The notes under the pieces were generated by a model. That model saw only the letters and a program-made list of their open reading frames with translations. It was not told where the DNA came from and made no database searches. This document shows positions 4,814 to 44,096 of a stretch of DNA of 64,000 nucleotides, piece by piece. The position numbers and the translations under genes are program-made. How positions within the stretch are numbered: the first letter of the stretch is position 1; each line of letters begins with the position of its first letter. Where the stretch lies: NCBI RefSeq assembly GCF_000696575.1, contig NZ_JMSQ01000007.1, forward strand, positions 1 through 64,000, in the 5' to 3' direction. The DNA is from Siccibacter colletis. GTDB lineage: Bacteria > Pseudomonadota > Gammaproteobacteria > Enterobacterales > Enterobacteriaceae.

Positions 4814-4850
4814 CACGGCGGGCAAGCGTCAGCGTTACCCGCCGTGTTTT
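4814..4850 (+). terminator. REP-like hairpin with U-tract between aceA and aceK (intra-operon attenuator)
   Basis: cacggcgggcaa-gcgtcagcg-ttacccgccgtg (12-bp stem, one mismatch) followed by tttt; the E. coli aceA-aceK spacer also carries REP hairpins that lower aceK expression. Confidence 0.55.
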
Positions 4851-4894
4851 CGGTTATCTCTCGGTTGCATCACCTTTCCCTCAGGAGCCTGCCT

Positions 4895-6637
4895 GTGACA
4901 CGCGGACTGGAACTGTTGATTGCGCAGACCATACTGCAGGGCTTCGACGCCCAGTATGGCCGTTTTCTCGAAGTGACTGCCGGGGCGCAGCAGCGCTTCG
5001 AACAGGCGGACTGGCACGCTGTGCAGCAGGCGATGAAAAGCCGCATCCATCTCTACGATCACCACGTAGGTCTGGTGGTGGAGCAGGTCAGGTGCATCAT
5101 GGCAGGCAAACGCACCGACGCCACTTTTTTACTGCGGGTAAAAGCGCAGTACACCGATCTGCTGCCGGGCTATCCGCGTTTTGAAATTGCCGAAAGCTTT
5201 TTTAACTCTGTCTACTGTCGGCTGTTCGATCACCGCGCGCTCTCCCCCGAGCGCCTGTTTATTTTCAGCTCGCAGTCCCCGCAGCGCTTTCGCAATCCGC
5301 CGCGTCCGTTGAGCAAAACCTTTCAACCGGACCGGGGTTGGGAGAAGCTGCTTACTACCTTACTGCGGGATCTGCCGCTGCGCCTGCCGTGGCAGGATCT
5401 GGCGCGCGACGTGGGCTACATTACCGCGCACCTGGCGGAGAGCCTCGGCCCGGAGATGATGCGTAAGGCCTCGCTGGAGATGGTAAACGAGCTGTTCTGG
5501 CGCAACAAAGCCGCCTGGCTGGTGGCGAAGCTGATCCTGCCGGGCGGTACGCTACCGTTTCTGCTGCCGATCCACCGAAGCGATGACGGCACGCTGTTTA
5601 TCGATACCTGCCTCACGCGCCACGCCGAGGCGAGCATCGTTTTTGGTTTCGCGCGCAGCTATTTCATGGTGTACGCCCCGCTGCCGGGCGCGCTGGTGGA
5701 GTGGCTGCGGGAAATCCTTCCGGGGAAAACCACGGCGGAACTCTATATGGCAATTGGCTGCCAGAAACACGGCAAAACCGAAAGCTATCGCGAATATCTG
5801 CACTACATCACCGCCACCGATGAGCAGTTTGTCGAAGCGCCCGGCATTCGCGGCATGGTGATGCTGGTGTTCACGCTGCCCGGCTTTGACCGGGTATTTA
5901 AGGTGATCAAAGACCGCTTCGCACCGCAAAAAGAGATGAGCGCGGCCCACGTCCGGGCCTGCTATCAGCTGGTAAAGGAGCACGACCGCGTTGGCCGTAT
6001 GGCGGACACCCAGGAGTTTGAAAATTTCGTGCTGGAGAAGCGGCACATCAGCCCGTCGCTGATGGCGTTGTTGCAGGCTGAAGTGGCGGAGAAGATCACC
6101 GATCTGGGAGATCGCATCAGCCTCAGCCATCTCTATATTGAACGCCGCATGGTGCCGTTGAATATCTGGTTTGAACAGGTCAGCGGCGCTCAGCTACGCA
6201 ACGCGGTGGAGGAGTACGGAAATGCCATCCGTCAGCTGGCGGCGGCCAATATCTTTCCCGGCGATATGCTGTTTAAAAACTTCGGCGTCACGCGCCACGG
6301 CCGGGTGGTGTTCTACGACTACGATGAGATCTGCTACATGACGGAAGTGAACTTCCGCGATATTCCGCCCGCGCGCTACCCGGAAGACGAACTGAGCGCC
6401 GAGCCCTGGTACAGCGTGGCGCCCGGCGATGTGTTTCCTGAGGAGTTCCGCCACTGGCTGTGTGCCGATCCACGTATCGGGCCGCTGTTTGAAGAGATGC
6501 ACGCCGACCTGTTCCGCGCCGCCTGGTGGCGCGAGCTGCAGGCGCGCATTCGCAGCGGCCACGTGGAGGACGTCTATGCGTACCGTAGACGCCAGCGGTT
6601 CAGCGTGCGCTACGGTCAGCGCCGGCAGGCGGGGTAG
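4895..6637 (+). CDS. aceK: isocitrate dehydrogenase kinase/phosphatase
   Basis: collinear with E. coli AceK from (M)[16 protein letters not shown]; GTG at 4895 is 7 nt after aggag and in frame with the longer track ORF (4844). Confidence 0.93.
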
Positions 6638-6639
6638 CC

Positions 6640-7578
6640 TCAGGTAAAGTAGTAGCGAACGACGTGGAAAAAGACCGGCGCGGCAAAGCACAGGGAATCA
6701 ATACGATCCATCATGCCGCCGTGGCCTTCCAGCATCGCGCCAAAATCTTTTACGCCGCGATCGCGTTTGATGGCAGACATGCACAGCCCGCCGGCAAAGC
6801 CCAGCAGCGTAATCAGCAGCGAGATAAAGAACGCCTGGAGCGGGTTAAAGGGCGTGATCCACCACAGCCCGGCGCCTACCAGGCTGGCAGTGAAAATGCC
6901 GCCGATGAACCCCTCTACCGTCTTGTTCGGGCTGAGCTTTGGCACGATGGCGCGCTTACCCCACAGCTTGCCGAACACATACTGCAGCACGTCGGAGATC
7001 TGCACCACAATCATCATGAACAGAATGAGTTTGATGTTCTGGCCTGCGTAACCGGGGATGTCGAGCATCAGCAGGGCGGGCGCATGACTGACGCAGTAGA
7101 TCGCCATCATCAGGCTCCACTGGATTTTGGCGCTGCGTTCCAGGAAATGCTGTGTATCGCCCGCCAGCGCGACGCGTACCGGGATAAACAGGAACGCGTA
7201 CACCGGAATGAAGATCACGAATACCCCGTACCAGTCGAAACCGACGAGGAAATACTGCACCGGCAGAATGGCGAAGAAGCACCAGAACAGCGCCTCGTGG
7301 TCCCCGCGCCGGGTCGGCATCAGGGTTATGCACTCCCGCAGCGCGAAAAACGACATCAGGGCAAACAGCACCACGGAACCTATAGGGCCGATCAGCATGG
7401 CGATGACCGACACGGTACACATCAGCCACCAGGCGCGGATGCGGGCGTTGAGGTTGGCGATAGTGGCGTTCTTGTAGCGGCGCGACAGGGCGAAACCAAT
7501 GATGCTCGCCACGGCTAACACGCCAAACAGGCCCATCAGCAGCAGACTGAGAGCGGGATCCATATTAATCATTCGCAA
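6640..7578 (-). CDS. CdsA-family phosphatidate cytidylyltransferase paralog (YnbB-like)
   Basis: 312-aa polytopic membrane protein carrying the CdsA signature (…KTVEGFIGGIFTASL…RDRGVKDFGAMLEGHGGMMDRIDS…); start overlaps the upstream gene's stop (alternative Met codons at 7572 and 7563). Confidence 0.8.
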   Translation of the reverse strand: MRMINMDPALSLLLMGLFGVLAVASIIGFALSRRYKNATIANLNARIRAWWLMCTVSVIAMLIGPIGSVVLFALMSFFALRECITLMPTRRGDHEALFWCFFAILPVQYFLVGFDWYGVFVIFIPVYAFLFIPVRVALAGDTQHFLERSAKIQWSLMMAIYCVSHAPALLMLDIPGYAGQNIKLILFMMIVVQISDVLQYVFGKLWGKRAIVPKLSPNKTVEGFIGGIFTASLVGAGLWWITPFNPLQAFFISLLITLLGFAGGLCMSAIKRDRGVKDFGAMLEGHGGMMDRIDSLCFAAPVFFHVVRYYFT

Positions 7579-8227
7579 GCGCCCCCAGCGCCGTTTTTGC
7601 CCGTGCTAAAAAGTCCTGTTTTGATTCATCCCCGGCAGGCGCGTCAATCGGCGCGCCAAAAGTGGCGGTACAGATAATCGGCACCACCAGACGCGAGCCT
7701 TTCGGCAGCACCCGGTTCATATTTTCCAGCCACACAGGGACCAGCTGCGCCTCCGGCATACGGCGTGCCAGGTGGTACAGCCCGCTTTTGAACGTGGCTA
7801 CCCCATTCCCGTCACCGCGAGTACCTTCCGGGAAGATGATCAGCGACTCGCCTTTCTCCAGCGCGTCTGCCAGCGAGGCCAGCGGATCGCGCGGCGCGGC
7901 AGACTCGCTCGCTTCCGGCGTATCTGCGGCCTGGCGACGGCGTTCAACCAGCACGGCATTAAACACGCGCGAAGCGAGGTAGCGGCGCAGCGGCGTTTTT
8001 TGCCAGTAGTCTGCCGCCGCCACCGGATGAACCTGGTTACGCAGCGCGCGCGGCAAGCTGGCCCAGATCACCAGCCCGTCCAGATGGCTGCTGTGGTTGG
8101 CGTAGTAGATAGTGGGGCGGTCTTTTTGCGGCACCTGATGCCAGAACGACTTTACGCCAGTCAACAGGCGGCACAGGGTGACCAGAAAGGATTGCACAAG
8201 GGTTTTATCCAGCGAGAAACGGCTCAT
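7565..8227 (-). CDS. PlsC-family 1-acyl-glycerol-3-phosphate (lysophospholipid) acyltransferase
   Basis: acyltransferase motifs NHSSHLD (HX4D) and FPEGTR; start ATG at 8227-8225 forms an ATGA overlap with the upstream gene's stop; the longer track ORF (to 8341) lacks homology in its N-terminal extension. Confidence 0.8.
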   Translation of the reverse strand: MSRFSLDKTLVQSFLVTLCRLLTGVKSFWHQVPQKDRPTIYYANHSSHLDGLVIWASLPRALRNQVHPVAAADYWQKTPLRRYLASRVFNAVLVERRRQAADTPEASESAAPRDPLASLADALEKGESLIIFPEGTRGDGNGVATFKSGLYHLARRMPEAQLVPVWLENMNRVLPKGSRLVVPIICTATFGAPIDAPAGDESKQDFLARAKTALGALAND

Positions 8228-8886
8228 CCGGCTTCTCCCTGACGCAAGCGGGCTAACACATCCCGGGTGCGGAGCAGCGCGGTCAGCGCAGAGCCTGCGG
8301 CAATAATGGCGAGCGTTGCCAGCAGGATCGGCTCGCCCCACTGCGGCACAACGGCAGCAAGTACCGCGGCCCCGGTCAACAGCGCCATACGGTGCTGCTT
8401 CGCCATCGGGCCGGTGAAACGCTGCGCCAGCCCGCAGGTGCCGCCCAGCAGGCGAACATAGGCGGTAAAGATAGCAAAGAACGCGGCGGCCCAGGCCAGC
8501 TCCACGCCATACGCAACCTGCGTCAGGCCATAGCCCGCGCCGAGAAACAGCAGCGTATCGGAGAGGCGGTCGGGCAGCTCGTTAAATACGGCACCCGCCG
8601 GGCTGCGCATGCCGCCTTCCACGGCGACCATGCCGTCGAGCAGATTGCAGATCAGGCGCCCCTGAATGCCCACCGCCGCGACCAGCAGCGCGCCGCGTTG
8701 CAGCAGGCTGTTGTCGAGATGCCAGACGCAGAGAAAACAGAGTGCAGAAAGTGCAGCGCAGACGATGCTGAAGAGAGAGATGCCGTTCGGCGTGCATCCC
8801 TTATGCCGTAAAAACGCAGCGGCAGACACCGCCCACTGCGCATCGCGCGTCTTTACCGGACGGCGATCGTGAATATCCTTTTCCAT
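8224..8886 (-). CDS. CDP-alcohol phosphatidyltransferase family protein (YnbA/PgsA-like)
   Basis: D-G-x2-A-R...G...D...D signature (NLLDGMVAVEGGMRSPAGAVFNELPDRLSDTL) and multiple TM segments. Confidence 0.8.
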   Translation of the reverse strand: MEKDIHDRRPVKTRDAQWAVSAAAFLRHKGCTPNGISLFSIVCAALSALCFLCVWHLDNSLLQRGALLVAAVGIQGRLICNLLDGMVAVEGGMRSPAGAVFNELPDRLSDTLLFLGAGYGLTQVAYGVELAWAAAFFAIFTAYVRLLGGTCGLAQRFTGPMAKQHRMALLTGAAVLAAVVPQWGEPILLATLAIIAAGSALTALLRTRDVLARLRQGEAG

Positions 8887-8943
8887 TTAAGTCATTAACC
8901 AGGTTGGTAAAATTTGGGCACCCAGTATAAAACCAATCAGGAA

Positions 8944-9780
8944 TTAACGCACTCCACCATATTTTAGTGTGACCTCTTTCGCCGCTTTGATTACCAGCGC
9001 CCCCAGCTCGGTCACGCGATCGTCGGTAATGCGTGAAATCGGGCCGGAGATGGAGATGGCGGCAAACGGCTCGTGATGTTCGTCGTAGATGCAGGCCGCC
9101 ACGCAGCGCAGGCCGAGGGCGTGCTCCTCGTCATCAAACGAATAGCCGCGTTTGCGGGTCTGGGCGAGATCGTCTTTCAGGTGCAGCGGGGAAACCAGCG
9201 TCGCCGGGGTATAAGCGTGCAGCCCTTTACGGTGCAGCAGACCGGTGACCTGCTCCTCGCTGAGCTGCGACAGAAAGGCTTTTCCCGCCCCGGAAGCATG
9301 CATGGGCAGCTTGCCGCCGATTGGCGCGGACATGCGCATCAGCTGGGTGCACTGCACCTGGTCAATGATAATCGCCTGATGATCGTTCTGGTCGAGCACC
9401 GCCAGGTTTACCGTCTCCCCTGACTCTTCCATCAGCTTACGCAGCACCGGGTGGACAATCGCCAGCAGATTGCGGCTCTGCAGGAAGCTGCTGCCAATGA
9501 TGAACGCGTGCGCGCCGATGGACCAGTGGCCGAGATCGCCAACCTGATGCACAAAGCCGAGCTGTTGCATGGTGGTGAGCAGGCGGTGCGTGGTGGAGTT
9601 CGGCAGGCCAGCCTGCTGCGCCAGCTCGGTCAGGGCGACGCTGCCCTGGGATTCCGCGATCCACTCCAGCAGCTTCAGGCCACGGGTCAGAGACTGTACC
9701 TGCCCGGTAGCGGGCGCTGGCGCGGCAGCGACGGCAGTGCGGGGTTTTTTACCGCGTTTGGCGGGGACGGGCGCGACCAT
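8944..9780 (-). CDS. iclR: glyoxylate-bypass transcriptional repressor IclR
   Basis: 278 aa, about 90% identical to E. coli IclR by eye (MVAP.PAKRG…GLPNSTTHRLLTTMQQ…). Confidence 0.97.
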   Translation of the reverse strand: MVAPVPAKRGKKPRTAVAAAPAPATGQVQSLTRGLKLLEWIAESQGSVALTELAQQAGLPNSTTHRLLTTMQQLGFVHQVGDLGHWSIGAHAFIIGSSFLQSRNLLAIVHPVLRKLMEESGETVNLAVLDQNDHQAIIIDQVQCTQLMRMSAPIGGKLPMHASGAGKAFLSQLSEEQVTGLLHRKGLHAYTPATLVSPLHLKDDLAQTRKRGYSFDDEEHALGLRCVAACIYDEHHEPFAAISISGPISRITDDRVTELGALVIKAAKEVTLKYGGVR

Positions 9781-9971
9781 AACGGACTCCTTTTCTGTAT
9801 CGTGGAAATCATTTTCGTTTCATCTGGCGATAATGCAACCGGCGTCTGACTGATCGGATGAGTCAATTATGAACATGTCTCATGTTACTGCAGTGTGACT
9901 TTTCCACCCTGGTGCTTTATGCCAGTATGGTTCGCTGGCCTGTTGGCCTGACTATAACGCCGGGAGTGAAT

Positions 9972-12900
9972 GTGAGTAGCACTGTTGAACAACTGCACGC
10001 GCAGCTAGCCAGACGAATTCTGGTGCTGGATGGCGGCATGGGGACCATGATCCAGAGCTATCGCCTGGAGGAAGCGGATTTTCGCGGCGCACGTTTCGCC
10101 GACTGGCCCTGCGACCTGAAAGGCAATAACGATCTGCTGGTGCTCAGCAAACCGGAGATCATTGCCGCGATCCACTCCGCCTACTTCGAAGCGGGCGCTG
10201 ACATTGTGGAAACCAACACCTTCAACTCCACCACTATCGCGATGGCCGACTACCAGATGGAAGCGCTGTCGGCGGAAATCAATTTTGAGGCCGCGAAGCT
10301 GGCCCGCGCCTGTGCGGACGAGTGGACGGCGCGCACGCCGGATAAACCGCGCTATGTCGCGGGCGTGCTTGGCCCGACGAACCGCACGGCCTCCATTTCG
10401 CCCGACGTGAATGACCCGGCCTACCGTAACGTCACCTTTGATGAGCTGGTGGTGGCCTACCGGGAATCAACCCGCGCGCTGGTGGAAGGCGGGTCGGACC
10501 TGATCCTGATCGAGACGGTGTTCGACACCCTGAATGCGAAAGCCGCGATCTACGCGGTGAAAGCGGAATTTGAGGCGCTGGGCGTTGACCTGCCGATCAT
10601 GATTTCCGGCACCATTACCGATGCATCCGGGCGCACGCTCTCCGGCCAGACCACCGAGGCGTTCTACAACTCCCTGCGCCATGCCGATGCGCTCTCCTTC
10701 GGCCTGAACTGCGCACTGGGGCCGGACGAACTGCGCCAGTACGTGCAGGAGCTGTCGCGCATCGCCGAATGCTACGTCACCGCCCACCCAAACGCCGGCT
10801 TGCCAAACGCCTTCGGGGAATATGACCTCGACCCGGCACCAATGGCGGCGCAAATCGGTGAATGGGCGCAGGCCGGTTTTCTGAACATTGTCGGCGGCTG
10901 CTGCGGCACCACGCCGGAACATATCGCGGCCATGAGCCGCGCGGTAGAAGGCGTTGCCCCACGCCCACTGCCGGAAATCCCGGTCGCCTGCCGTCTGGCA
11001 GGGCTGGAGCCGCTCACGATTGGCGACGATTCGCTGTTCGTGAACGTCGGCGAGCGCACCAACGTCACCGGCTCGGCAAAATTCAAGCGCCTGATTAAAG
11101 AAGAGAAGTACAGCGAAGCGCTGGACGTGGCGCGTCAGCAGGTGGAAAGCGGCGCGCAGATTATCGATATCAACATGGATGAGGGGATGCTCGACGCCGA
11201 AGCGGCGATGGTGCGTTTTCTCAACCTGATTGCTGGCGAGCCTGACATCGCCCGCGTGCCGATCATGATCGACTCCTCAAAGTGGGAGGTGATTGAAAAA
11301 GGGCTGAAGTGCATTCAGGGCAAAGGCATCGTTAACTCCATCTCGATGAAAGAAGGCGTCGACACCTTTATTCATCACGCGAAGCTGGTGCGCCGCTACG
11401 GTGCCGCAGTGGTGGTGATGGCCTTCGATGAAGTGGGCCAGGCCGATACCCGCGCGCGCAAAATCGAGATCTGCCGCCGGGCCTATAAAATTCTCACCGA
11501 AGAGGTGGGCTTCCCGCCGGAAGATATCATCTTCGACCCGAACATCTTTGCCGTGGCGACCGGCATCGAAGAGCATAACAACTACGCCCAGGACTTCATT
11601 GGCGCCTGCGAAGACATCAAGCGTGAATTGCCGCATGCGCTGATCTCCGGTGGCGTGTCCAACGTCTCTTTCTCGTTCCGCGGTAATGACCCGGTGCGCG
11701 AAGCCATTCACGCGGTGTTCCTCTACTACGCGATCCGCAACGGCATGGACATGGGGATCGTGAACGCCGGTCAGCTGGCAATCTACGACGATCTGCCGGC
11801 AGAGCTGCGTGATGCGGTCGAGGATGTGATCCTCAATCGCCGGGACGACAGCACCGAGCGGATGCTCGATCTGGCCGAAAAGTATCGCGGCAGCAAAAGC
11901 GACGAGGCCGCCAATGCCCAGCAGGCGGAGTGGCGCAGCTGGGAGGTGAAAAAACGGCTTGAGTACTCGCTGGTGAAGGGCATTACCGAGTTTATCGAGC
12001 AGGATACCGAAGAGGCACGCCAGCAGGCGGAGCGCCCGATTCAGGTGATTGAAGGGCCGCTGATGGACGGCATGAACGTGGTCGGCGACCTGTTCGGCGA
12101 AGGCAAAATGTTCCTGCCGCAGGTAGTGAAATCCGCCCGCGTGATGAAACAGGCGGTGGCGTACCTGGAGCCCTTTATCGAAGCCAGCAAAGAGAAGGGC
12201 AAAACGAACGGCAAGATGGTGATCGCCACCGTGAAGGGTGACGTGCATGACATCGGCAAAAACATCGTCGGCGTGGTGCTCCAGTGCAATAACTATGAAA
12301 TTGTTGACCTTGGCGTGATGGTGCCGACGGAGAAAATCCTCAAAACCGCGCGCGAGGTGAATGCGGACCTGATTGGCCTCTCGGGGCTGATCACCCCGTC
12401 GCTGGACGAGATGGTGAACGTGGCGAAAGAGATGGAGCGTCAGGGCTTTACCATTCCGCTGCTGATTGGCGGAGCGACCACGTCGAAAGCGCATACCGCG
12501 GTGAAGATTGAGCAAAATTACAGCGGCCCGACGGTCTACGTGCAAAACGCCTCGCGCACCGTGGGCGTGGTGTCGTCGCTGCTCTCCGATACCCTGCGCG
12601 ATGAGTTCGTGGCGCGTACCCGTAAAGAGTACGACACCGTGCGTATTCAGCATGCGCGTAAGAAACCCCGTACCCCGCCGGTCACGCTGCACGCGGCGCG
12701 GGAAAACGATCTGGCCTTCGACTGGGAGAGTTACACTCCGCCCGCTGCGCACCGCCTCGGTGTTGAAGAAGTGACTGCCAGCATCGACACGCTGCGCAAC
12801 TACATCGACTGGACGCCGTTCTTTATGACCTGGTCGCTGGCCGGGAAATACCCGCGCATTCTTGAAGATGACGTCGTGGGCGAGGAGGCGCAGCGCCTGT

Positions 12901-13655
12901 TTAAGGATGCCAACGAGATGCTTGACCAGCTCGCGGCGGAAAAATCACTCACGCCGCGCGGCGTAGTGGGGATCTTCCCGGCGAACCGGGTGGGCGACGA
13001 CGTGGAAGTCTACCGCGACGAGACGCGCACCCACGTGCTGGCGGTCAGCCGCCATCTGCGCCAGCAAACCGAGAAGGTCGGCTTCGCTAACTACTGCCTG
13101 GCAGACTTCGTGGCACCGAAACTGAGCGGTAAAGCGGATTATCTTGGCGCGTTTGCCGTCACCGGCGGGCTGGAGGAGGACGCGCTGGCCGACGCCTTCG
13201 ACGCGCAGCACGACGACTACAACAAGATCATGATTAAAGCGGTGGCCGACCGCCTGGCGGAAGCCTTTGCCGAGTATCTGCACGAGCGGGTGCGCAAAGT
13301 GATCTGGGGCTACGCCCCGAATGAAAACCTCAGTAATGAGGACCTGATCCGCGAGAACTATCAGGGCATCCGCCCGGCACCAGGCTATCCCGCCTGCCCG
13401 GAGCACACCGAGAAGGCCACCATCTGGCAATTGCTGGATGTGGAAACCCGCATCGGGATGAAGCTCACCGAGTCTTACGCCATGTGGCCGGGCGCGTCGG
13501 TGTCCGGCTGGTATTTCAGCCATCCCGACAGCAAGTACTTCGCCGTGGCGCAAATCCAGCGCGATCAGGTGGAGGATTACGCCCAGCGTAAAGGCATGAG
13601 CGTCAGCGAGGTGGAGCGGTGGCTCGCCCCGAATTTGGGGTACGATGCGGACTGA
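9972..13655 (+). CDS. metH: cobalamin-dependent methionine synthase
   Basis: 1227 aa from a GTG start ([24 protein letters not shown]…), full-length collinear with E. coli MetH; the track ORF start at 9882 is an upstream in-frame extension. Confidence 0.96.
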
Positions 13656-41672: not shown

Positions 41673-44096
41673 TCAGCTGGTCTGCGCCGAGGCGCTTTCA
41701 ATAGTCAGACGCACGTCAGAGGTCACCAGCTCGCCCAGCAGCTGGTAAATCGCCATGGTGCGGGTCGGATCGGCATCTCCGGTATCGCTGATGTAACCTT
41801 CGTCGCGCAGCGTCAGCACCAGCGTGCTGAAGACCGCTTTGTCGAAGAACTCCGGCGCGTTGATGCCGTGCAGCACCGACAGGCGCTGAGCCACGGTACG
41901 GCTCTCTTTTTCCAGCGTACCGCGGTTGATCGCCGGGTTAGCGCTCAGCAGCCAGAAGGTAATGGCGTAGCGCTGAAGCGTTTCCCGCACCCCGGCAGCC
42001 AGCAGCTGCAGCGTGCGTGAGCGTGCCGGATTAAGCTGAAGCTGCTCGCCGTTGGCGACGATTAACCCCTGCTGCAGCATCTCTTCCAGCAGGGCATCAA
42101 TGACGCCACCCAGCTCTGATTTATCCCAGCGCAGGAACAGCTCGGTTTTCAGCATCGGATAGATAACTTCAATCTGGCTCAGCAGCGTTTCACGGCTGAT
42201 GTTGCGGTGCTGGGTAACAATCGCGGCAATCAGCGATGGCAGCACCAGCATGTGCAGAATGTTATTACGGTAGTACGTCATCAGCACTGCCTGCTCGCGC
42301 GGCAGGATGATGATGTCGCCGATGGTATCTTTCTCAACTTCGAACTTGTTCATCTGCAGCGCGTGATCGATAAGCTCATCGGCGGTGGCAGCAGGCACGG
42401 TCGCGTCCGCGGCATACGGCACGTTACGCAGCAGGCTGAGATAGCAGTTCAGCTGCTCGGTAAGCTGTTCGCGGGTCAGCGAACGCTGGCGTGACGCAAG
42501 CAGGGCTGTGCAGCAGAGGTTCATGGCGTTAGCCGCACCGGCGTTGTTGATGCGCACCATCAGTTCACCGGCAATGCCGTTGACGGTTGGCGTCAGCCAC
42601 GCCGGACGTATCGCTTCGATCGGGTCAACCGATTCGCGCCACTCCGGCACGTTATCATTCAGCCATGAGGTCAGCGACATCGGCTCGCCGAAGTTGACAT
42701 AGCCCTGGCCGAGATTGCGCAGCTTGCTCAGCCCGCGCACCATCTGCAGCAGGCTCTCTTTCTCTTTCGTAGCGCCGCGCAGCTCTTTGGCATAGGTGCC
42801 CACTTCCATGACGTGCTCGTAGCCGATGTAAATCGGCACCAGCGTAATCGGACGAGTGCCGCCGCGCAGCATCGCCTGAATGGTCATCGAAAGCGTGCCG
42901 GTTTTCGGATCCAGCAGGCGACCGGTACGGGAGCGTCCGCCTTCCACGAAATATTCAACCGAGTAGCCGCGGCTGAACAGTTCGCCGAGGTACTCACGGA
43001 ACACCGTGGAATAGAGCTTGTTGCCTTTAAAAGTACGACGGATAAAGAACGCGCCCAGACGGCGGAAAATCGGGCCAGCGGGCCAGAAATTCAGGTTGAT
43101 GCCCGCAGCAATGTGTGGCGGTACCAGCCCCTGGTGATAGAGCACGTAAGAGAGCAGCAGATAGTCCATATGGCTGCGGTGGCAGGGCACATAGACGATC
43201 TCGTGACCGTCGTGGGCCAGCTGACGTACGCGCTCAGCGTTATGAACGTTGATGCCCTGATAGAGACGGTTCCAGGTAAAGCCCAGCACGCGATCGCTCA
43301 CGCGAATAGCTTCATAGGAGAAGTCAGCCGCGATCTCTTCCATCAGCGCGACGGCATTCTGCTGCGCCTTTTCATGGGAGATCTTTTTGGTACGCGCTTC
43401 GTCCTCTACCGCACGGGCAATCGCTTTTGACGCCAGCAGCTTATTGAACAGATCCTGACGCACCGGCAGGCGTGGGCCAACGGTGGCCAGACGCTGGCGG
43501 GCAAAATGCATACGCGCCACGCGCGCCAGCTTTTGCGCGATAATTTTATCGGTGCCGTGTTCGGTGGCCATGCGGCGCAGCGAAACCGGCGGCGAGAAGC
43601 GCACAAAGCTATCGCGCCCCAGCCAGGAGATAGCGACGAACTTCTGAATGCCGTTCAGCATGCGCAGCGGCGGGTTAACCTCGCCCTTTTCGCGGCCCGG
43701 AGAGCGGCCAAACATCACCGAAACCGGCACCATCTGCACATCGAGATTCGGGTTGCTGCGGTGTAAATCCAGATAGTCGTGGAAGAGCTTAATAGACTCT
43801 TCTTTCGGCGTGTAATAGGTGAATACGCGCGGCCCGCTGTGAATGAACACGTAGCGCGGCAGAATAGCGCCGTCGATTTCCAGCGGTTCAAGCGGGTCGG
43901 GTAAATCATGCGCCAGGCATTGTTCGCGCAGCGCCAGCAAATCTGCCTTAGAGTTATAGGGCAGCACATACATAATAGGGCGAGAGGTATCCAGCCCTAA
44001 TTCGGCGCAGGGGTCTGCCGGAATAGACTTGGTCTTTACCAGGACGCTTAATGGTAAATTCAGTAATTTGTAGTAAATTCGTGGCCAACCGGACAT
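41673..44096 (-). CDS. plsB: glycerol-3-phosphate 1-O-acyltransferase
   Basis: 807 aa, collinear with E. coli PlsB ([17 protein letters not shown]…). Confidence 0.97.

Follow-up and report, generated by a model that had tools for sequence, protein, structure and literature searches.

A widespread three-gene cluster between aceK and iclR of Siccibacter colletis encodes a putative auxiliary phospholipid route with a divergent CDP-alcohol phosphotransferase

We analysed a 64,000-nucleotide stretch of Siccibacter colletis DNA (assembly GCF_000696575.1, contig NZ_JMSQ01000007.1, positions 1 to 64,000; this whole stretch is hereafter called the window), focusing on three overlapping genes, g1, g2 and g3, that lie on the minus strand between aceK and iclR (Table 1). 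Their products, like IclR, are identical in sequence to S. colletis proteins and carry generic names at NCBI ('CDP-alcohol phosphatidyltransferase family protein', 'lysophospholipid acyltransferase family protein' and 'phosphatidate cytidylyltransferase', respectively; CDP, cytidine diphosphate). An initial annotation, made from the sequence, had placed a three-gene set in the slot that is occupied by arpA in E. coli K-12, and we found the open reading frames (ORFs) intact at these positions. All three are full length when compared with their orthologues (coverage 99–100%), with lengths and starts that are kept from genus to genus; the objection that they could be fragments or pseudogenes does not hold. 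The GC content of the trio resembles that of its flanks. When the 2.2-kb region was used as a DNA query, no match was found in 5,426 complete E. coli genomes.

Table 1. Coordinates of the g1-g2-g3 cluster and of other features of the window.
Feature	Coordinates	Strand	Remarks
g1	8886..8224	-	220 aa, ATG start; exact NCBI protein WP_031521337
g2	8227..7565	-	220 aa, ATG start at 8227
g3	7572..6640	-	310 aa from ATG 7572; NCBI protein for the exact sequence WP_031521334
iclR-g1 spacer	8887..8943	-	57 nt
iclR	9780..8944	-	NCBIfam IclR equivalog, 569.7 bits; upstream gene on the same strand, context only, outside the lipid module
aceK	4844..6637	+	NCBIfam AceK equivalog, 905.6 bits; convergent with g3, context only
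metH	9882..13655	+	Flanking gene
plsB	41673..44096	-	Housekeeping glycerol-3-phosphate acyltransferase; NCBIfam equivalog, 1290 bits

The limits of the three genes could be read from the sequence. An in-frame TAA stands directly 5' of the g1 ATG, so 8886 is the first possible start of this gene, and the stop of g1 and the start of g2 overlap as ATGA at 8227-8224, in agreement with the initial annotation. The overlap of 14 nt that had been proposed between g2 and g3 assumes that g3 starts at TTG 7578; however, ATG 7572 is the more probable start, because a GGGGG tract is located 9 nt upstream of it and the NCBI protein has 310 residues, and the overlap is then of 8 nt (ATGATTAA). With either start, translational coupling of g2 and g3 is plausible.

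Conservation was assessed in a one-genome-per-species scan that yielded 593 relatives, of which the best 80 loci were analysed; the invariance figures given below refer to 71–77 homologues drawn from these loci. The three family assignments made previously held when the proteins were compared with profile hidden Markov models: g2 matched PF01553, g3 matched PF01148, and g1 matched PF01066 below the gathering score. The match of g2 to PF01553 (E = 3e-18, 66.3 bits versus a cut-off of 23) identifies it as an acyltransferase of the LPLAT/PlsC type; it also matches the Thermotoga maritima PlsC (5KYM, E = 2.5e-4), and its motifs H45-x4-D50 and F132-P-E-G-x-R137 are intact and invariant in 71 homologues. 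For g3, the match to PF01148 (E = 2.5e-67, 227.9 bits) is accompanied by matches to TmCdsA (4Q2E/4Q2G, E ~1e-13) and by a full-length alignment with E. coli YnbB at 42% identity (E = 2e-65), which bears out its description as a YnbB-like CdsA paralog. The C-terminal CdsA signature S-x2-KR-x4-KD ... HGG-x2-DR-xD is present in g3, and residues S266, K269, R270, K275, G285, G286, D289, R290 and D292 are invariant.

The scores of g2 and g3 against the models of the housekeeping enzymes were far lower than required. For g2 we obtained 17.7 bits versus 501 with PRK15018 and 44 versus 103 with TIGR00530, the PlsC equivalogs, and for g3, 102.5 bits versus 385 with the CdsA equivalog, with only the C-terminal half aligned. 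Since the trio proteins lie far below the NCBIfam PlsC, CdsA and phosphatidylinositol-phosphate (PIP) synthase (PIPS) equivalog cut-offs, and plsB is present elsewhere in the window, they appear to be specialised paralogs. The presence of plsB at its own site shows that the main lipid pathway of this organism is separate from the trio, and in genome annotation g1, g2 and g3 should not be read as the housekeeping pgsA, plsC and cdsA. Next to plsB, where dgkA would sit, there is a 122-aa ORF without any NCBIfam match at E <= 1e-20.

The protein encoded by g1 is the most divergent of the three. It scored 19.6 bits against PF01066, under the Pfam gathering score of 22, and nearly all of its homologues are without a precomputed Pfam domain. 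Its best NCBIfam matches, to archaetidylinositol-phosphate synthase (AIPS, 53.7 bits versus 180) and to PIPS (36.5 bits versus 170), were also far below cut-off, and none of the PgsA models in NCBIfam matched it. A profile built from 17 g1 homologues matched, among the PDB sequences, AF2299 and the PIP synthase PgsA1 of Mycobacterium tuberculosis, although the identity of g1 to PIP synthases is about 20%. The AlphaFold (AF2) model of g1 (pLDDT 85.9) has six transmembrane helices folded as in class I CDP-alcohol phosphotransferases; in Foldseek, PIPS, AF2299 and IPCT-DIPPS ranked first (probability 1.00, TMq 0.67-0.70, E ~1e-5), in contrast with PgsA of Staphylococcus aureus (TMq 0.47, E = 0.05), which synthesises phosphatidylglycerol phosphate (PGP). 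The previous description of g1 as YnbA/PgsA-like is thus right as to the family and loosely right as to YnbA (35% identity over a 110-residue core), but the protein is not PgsA-like; the g1 type is a sister subfamily of YnbA.

The canonical signature of these enzymes, D1-x2-D2-G-x2-A-R-x8-G-x3-D3-x3-D4, is modified in g1, which reads N81-x2-D84-G-x2-A-V-x8-G98-x3-N102-x3-D106-R107-x2-D110. Residues D84, G85, A88, G98 and D106 of the signature are present, whereas N81 replaces D1, V89 replaces the Arg and N102 replaces D3. In the HMMER alignment with PgsA1, whose numbering agrees with that of the published structure (PMC6506517), N81 corresponds to D68, D84 to D71, V89 to the motif Arg, N102 to D89 and D106 to D93. 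In PgsA1, Mg-1 is bound by D68, D71 and D89 and Mg-2 by D89 and D93, the last of which has been proposed to act as catalytic base (PMC6506517). The substitutions are a property of the family: among its 149 best representatives at 50% identity, 146 have Asn at D1 and 145 at D3, and E. coli YnbA likewise has Asn at the first and third Asp positions. From this we infer that the metal site of g1 works differently from the canonical one.

On the other hand, the acceptor pocket of the PIP synthases is retained in g1. The residues R94, Y133, K135, R152, R155 and R195 line the inositol-phosphate pocket of PgsA1 (PMC6506517), and they correspond in g1 to R107, Y143, R145, K163, R166 and R206, all of which are invariant in 77 sequences; each of the basic residues of the pocket (R94, K135, R152, R155 and R195) has a basic equivalent. 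This suggests that the acceptor of g1 is a phosphate-bearing alcohol, bound as in the PIP synthases.

At 50% identity, the large g1 family forms 685 clusters (E <= 1e-30), and the best 80 loci cover roughly nine phyla. The trio was found in Gamma-, Beta- and Alphaproteobacteria, Verrucomicrobiota (including Akkermansia), Acidobacteriota, Planctomycetota and Chloroflexota, as well as in Gemmatimonadota, Eremiobacterota, Bdellovibrionota and Binatia. The neighbourhood comparison suggested by the initial annotation gave a clear result: g1, g2 and g3 are adjacent in 75 of the 80 loci, and most of the five incomplete loci are interrupted by contig ends. Of the loci, 59 have the order g1-g2-g3 and 8, most of them in Rhizobiales, the order g2-g3-g1, while 6 have g1-g3-g2. 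Across phyla, dozens of residues of the trio proteins are invariant, including the two substituted Asn positions of g1. The S. colletis locus is a typical member of a very widespread, uncharacterised three-gene module with its own transferase subfamily, and not a new kind of system. Literature searches with several names for the trio brought up nothing beyond mentions in genome annotations.

Clustering of all neighbouring ORFs in the 80 loci did not reveal any further neighbour conserved across taxa, and the families that did recur were of a general kind, for example ABC transporters and histidine kinases. Plasmids also carry the trio: it is present on plasmid pC of Rhizobium etli, where it is annotated pgsAc and cdsAc, and beside integrases on a megaplasmid of Pseudomonas sp. 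FeN3W (locus L085, 1-16612). The layout metH / iclR-g1-g2-g3 / aceK was common only to Trabulsiella, Pluralibacter and Symbiopectobacterium among the loci examined. Since there is no other conserved neighbour, the contexts are unrelated and plasmids are among the carriers, the position between aceK and iclR is incidental and the trio is a portable, self-contained module. A functional linkage to the glyoxylate-shunt genes was considered and rejected, because in most taxa, and on the plasmids, the trio has other, unrelated surroundings; the siting, which the initial annotation had found notable, is shared by few Enterobacteriaceae, says little about function and should not be given a metabolic meaning.

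Two of these loci deserve a separate description. On the FeN3W megaplasmid, integrase and TerD genes are located on one side of the trio, and its other side has genes for WGR, RNA 2'-phosphotransferase, ATP-grasp and phosphoribosyltransferase proteins; this context is mobile and stress-island-like. In Ca. Symbiopectobacterium endolongispinus (locus L013, 6100-10300), g1, g2, g3, iclR and metH are all split into fragments, and in a sister genome (L003) the trio is intact. The trio seems to be dispensable under genome reduction.

Larger clusters contain relatives of the same genes. In Pseudomonas aeruginosa, arc1A-F (PA2541-PA2536) are induced through Gac/Rsm, five of the six genes are phospholipid-related, and Arc1 is needed to survive attack by Burkholderia thailandensis through its type VI secretion system (T6SS; PMC8926400); part of the resistance to T6SS lipase effectors comes from arc1A (PMC12663445). 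The cluster listed for Pseudomonas protegens comprises a CDP-alcohol phosphatidyltransferase, a hydrolase/methyltransferase, a PAP2 phosphatase, PlsC and CdsA. We identified six-gene clusters in Burkholderia ambifaria and Shinella (L089 and L090) that encode a transferase, a hydrolase/methyltransferase, a PAP2/DSP phosphatase, a hypothetical protein of ~150 aa, an acyltransferase and a CdsA-like protein, a composition that agrees with the published descriptions of Arc1 and of the P. protegens cluster. The identity of g2 (43-44%) and g3 (54-56%) to their counterparts in these clusters is at the same level as that to the three-gene clusters of R. etli and Pseudomonas, which suggests that the acyltransferase and CdsA-like genes are orthologous between both cluster types. 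The transferases differ: that of the six-gene clusters is of the YnbA type, sharing ~45% identity with E. coli YnbA and 32-37% with g1, whereas that of the three-gene clusters is of the g1 type, 45-46% identical to g1.

A Bryobacteraceae metagenome-assembled genome (locus L025, 8001-12565) contains a hybrid cluster with a g1-type transferase, a YnbC-like protein, a DSP phosphatase, an acyltransferase and a CdsA-like protein, and this hybrid links the three-gene and six-gene types. At another locus (L087, 7001-9402), a YnbC-like gene is followed by an acyltransferase only, and no transferase or CdsA-like gene is nearby. Evidently, such lipid clusters are assembled from interchangeable modules, and the trio appears to be the smallest version of a broader set of auxiliary clusters for phospholipids that includes ynbABCD and the Arc1 type. 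PA2541-like termini (MIS...QA) were absent from the 149 g1-family representatives; the L025 YnbC-like protein, used as a query for PA2540, gave a best 120 matches that were all environmental; and a 23-nt pattern taken from a published deletion primer (for PA2536/PA2537) was rejected, since its 3 metagenome matches were chance matches to sigma/anti-sigma junctions of soil bacteria. Additionally, a PADLOC scan of g1, g2 and g3 did not reveal any match to a defence system.

Taking these observations together, we propose, with a probability of about 0.55, that the trio forms a self-contained, probably translationally coupled and channelled lipid route that operates beside the housekeeping enzymes and makes a phosphatidyl-(phospho-alcohol). 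In this route, g2 would acylate an acceptor resembling lysophosphatidic acid to give phosphatidic acid, g3 would convert phosphatidic acid and cytidine triphosphate into CDP-diacylglycerol, and g1 would use a phosphorylated alcohol (glycerol-phosphate, inositol-phosphate or similar) as acceptor and place the phosphatidyl group on its hydroxyl, producing an anionic phosphatidyl-(alcohol-phosphate) and cytidine monophosphate. The general logic, in which activated CDP-diacylglycerol is made and then transferred to an alcohol, had been advanced in the initial annotation and is consistent with the catalytic motifs that are invariant in the 71-77 homologues. The analysis shows the enzyme families, the intact motifs, the preserved gene adjacency and a g1 pocket like that of PIPS, whereas the step order, the channelling, the kind of acceptor and the physiological role are inferred. 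By analogy with ynbABCD and the Arc1-type clusters, the trio would most likely represent a conditionally expressed module for membrane remodelling or repair rather than a pathway for bulk lipid.

Several points weigh against this proposal. Asn occupies two of the four metal-ligand Asp positions of g1, and Val the position of the motif Arg; given this altered motif, the chemistry of g1 may differ from canonical phosphatidyl transfer. The trio does not encode a phosphatase that could mature the phosphorylated product, and in every organism that carries it the pathway is a prediction. E. coli YnbB has been reported to feed the synthesis of MPIase and not that of phospholipids (PMC6362211). Finally, the link to Arc1 comes from matching gene composition and from the Burkholderia and Shinella clusters used as proxies, not from the P. 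aeruginosa sequences, and because the transferase of the six-gene clusters is of the YnbA type and not of the g1 type, the Arc1 phenotype may not carry over to the trio.

Among the other explanations, a redundant or back-up branch of phosphatidylglycerol (PG) synthesis fares best. Here g2, g3 and g1 would be isozymes of PlsC, CdsA and PgsA that make PGP from glycerol-3-phosphate, with PgpA/B/C carrying out the dephosphorylation. The three steps would lead exactly from lysophosphatidic acid to PGP, glycerol-3-phosphate is available in every phylum with the trio, the acceptor pocket of g1 suits a phosphate-bearing alcohol, and Ting et al. described the Arc1 genes as homologous to PG-synthesis enzymes (PMC8926400). 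However, the fold of g1 is nearer to PIPS and AF2299 than to PgsA (TMq 0.68-0.70 versus 0.47; E ~1e-5 versus 0.05), the PgsA models of NCBIfam do not match it, the metal-site motif is altered throughout its family, and E. coli YnbB failed to complement a cdsA knockout (PMC6362211). We consider this branch unlikely.

Given that the best NCBIfam, PDB-sequence and fold matches of g1 are to AIPS/PIPS and that all the residues of the PIPS inositol-phosphate pocket are kept, g1 could instead be a true PIP synthase that uses inositol-1-phosphate, and the lipid a bacterial phosphatidylinositol-phosphate. This is quite improbable, since g1 is far from the 170 bits of the PIPS equivalog, two of its metal-ligand Asp are replaced by Asn, and in none of the 80 loci is the trio accompanied by an inositol-phosphate synthase (MIPS) or a PIP phosphatase gene. 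Furthermore, Enterobacterales are not known to make phosphatidylinositol.

A third explanation assigns the trio to a glycolipid precursor: g3 would feed the formation of GlcNAc-PP-DAG (DAG, diacylglycerol), the first intermediate of MPIase, and g1 would couple CDP-DAG to a sugar-1-phosphate through a pyrophosphate link. The similarity of g3 to YnbB is in line with this, as overproduction of YnbB raises MPIase (PMC6362211), and if the nucleophile were a phosphate, this could help to explain why the metal site of g1 is altered. Nevertheless, the effect of YnbB on MPIase was described as marginal or auxiliary, and the formation of compound I was credited to CdsA and YnbB, not to YnbA (PMC6362211). 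The conserved acyltransferase would be left unexplained, and g1 keeps the pocket of an enzyme with a hydroxyl nucleophile. The trio is also present in Verrucomicrobiota, Acidobacteriota and Planctomycetota, phyla in which a glycan like the enterobacterial common antigen is not expected; the glycolipid role is very improbable. Lastly, the idea that we are dealing with pseudo-enzymes, paralogs in decay or without activity that a variable intergenic slot merely tolerates, which could appeal to the two catalytic Asp lost in g1, to the fragmented trio of one genome-reducing symbiont and to the lack of the trio in E. coli, is strongly disfavoured by the three full-length ORFs with conserved lengths and starts, by the residues invariant across phyla (both Asn included) and by the adjacency maintained in 75 of 80 loci.

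An extension of the phosphatidyl-(phospho-alcohol) proposal would see in the g1 type a catalytically distinct class of CDP-alcohol phosphotransferases (N-x2-D-G ... N-x3-D-R-x2-D), with a reduced-charge, possibly single-metal site, that makes together with g2 and g3 an undescribed anionic lipid (a phosphatidyl-polyol-phosphate or a pyrophosphate-linked one) in a general inducible pathway of membrane defence or repair present in about nine phyla. We regard this extension as doubtful.

With respect to the surroundings of the trio, metA, aceB, aceA and aceK precede it on the plus strand, and after the trio and iclR (minus strand) comes metH (plus strand). The stop of aceK (6637) and the stop codon of g3 (6642-6640) are convergent and 2 nt apart, so any terminator of either gene would be inside the coding sequence of the other. 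A scan of 6300-10000 for sigma-70 promoters and terminators called none between iclR and g1, and elsewhere nothing above chance. The RNA fold of the iclR-g1 spacer was no better than that of shuffled sequences (z-score 0.07), and no terminator-like structure was observed in it. The spacer contains a -10-like TATACT at 8929-8924 (minus strand), an element kept as TATACT/TATAAT in Trabulsiella and Symbiopectobacterium, which may be a promoter of the trio's own, with a -35 element inside the end of iclR. Transcription from an own promoter and read-through from iclR are both possible. The search for IclR boxes found none near g1; the only IclR-box-like site is the expected one upstream of iclR, a palindrome in the iclR-metH spacer (9803-9817, TGGAAATCATTTTCG) with 2 mismatches to the query consensus, and it is consistent with autoregulation of iclR.

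Of the known systems, the PIP synthases (M. tuberculosis PgsA1 and the enzymes of Renibacterium salmoninarum and Mycobacterium kansasii), together with AF2299/DIPPS, are the closest to g1 in solved fold and in sequence, and the residues of the phospho-alcohol pocket are conserved between them. The differences are the Asn residues at the positions of D68 and D89, the Val in place of the motif Arg, the scores far below the equivalog, and the lack of linkage of the trio to genes for inositol-phosphate supply. The housekeeping PlsC-CdsA-PgsA route shares with the trio the three reaction types and their metabolic order, but the trio proteins do not reach the scores of the housekeeping PlsC and CdsA, and no PgsA model recognises g1. 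In E. coli, the housekeeping plsC, cdsA and pgsA are not known to be clustered as an overlapping trio.

The E. coli cluster ynbABCD, with which a comparison had been recommended, is related and larger: it encodes YnbA, YnbB, the hydrolase/methyltransferase YnbC and the PAP2/DSP phosphatase YnbD. In both clusters, which are non-housekeeping operons, a CdsA paralog (YnbB or g3) is paired with a CDP-alcohol phosphotransferase (YnbA or g1), and both transferases have Asn at the first and third signature Asp. In contrast, ynbABCD does not include an acyltransferase equivalent to g2, and the trio lacks YnbC and YnbD, for which tblastn gave no match anywhere in the 64-kb window. Besides the limited identity between the two transferases, the motif Arg that is replaced by Val in g1 is kept by the YnbA type, which for its part is without equivalents of the pocket residues R107 and R145; the two types probably use different acceptors.

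The Arc1-type clusters have the same acyltransferase and CdsA-like families as the trio, plus a CDP-alcohol phosphotransferase, and are likewise separate from the housekeeping lipid genes. They differ by the additional hydrolase/methyltransferase, PAP2/DSP phosphatase and small membrane protein and by a transferase of the YnbA type, so that three of the six Arc1 gene types are represented in the trio; only in P. aeruginosa has such a cluster been reported to be under Gac/Rsm control and to defend against the T6SS. Arc1 has a clear phenotype in interbacterial warfare. Being the smallest natural version of this group, with three enzymes and no accessory genes, the trio offers the simplest setting for finding the lipid and for learning what a CDP-alcohol phosphotransferase does when two of its four metal-ligand positions hold Asn.

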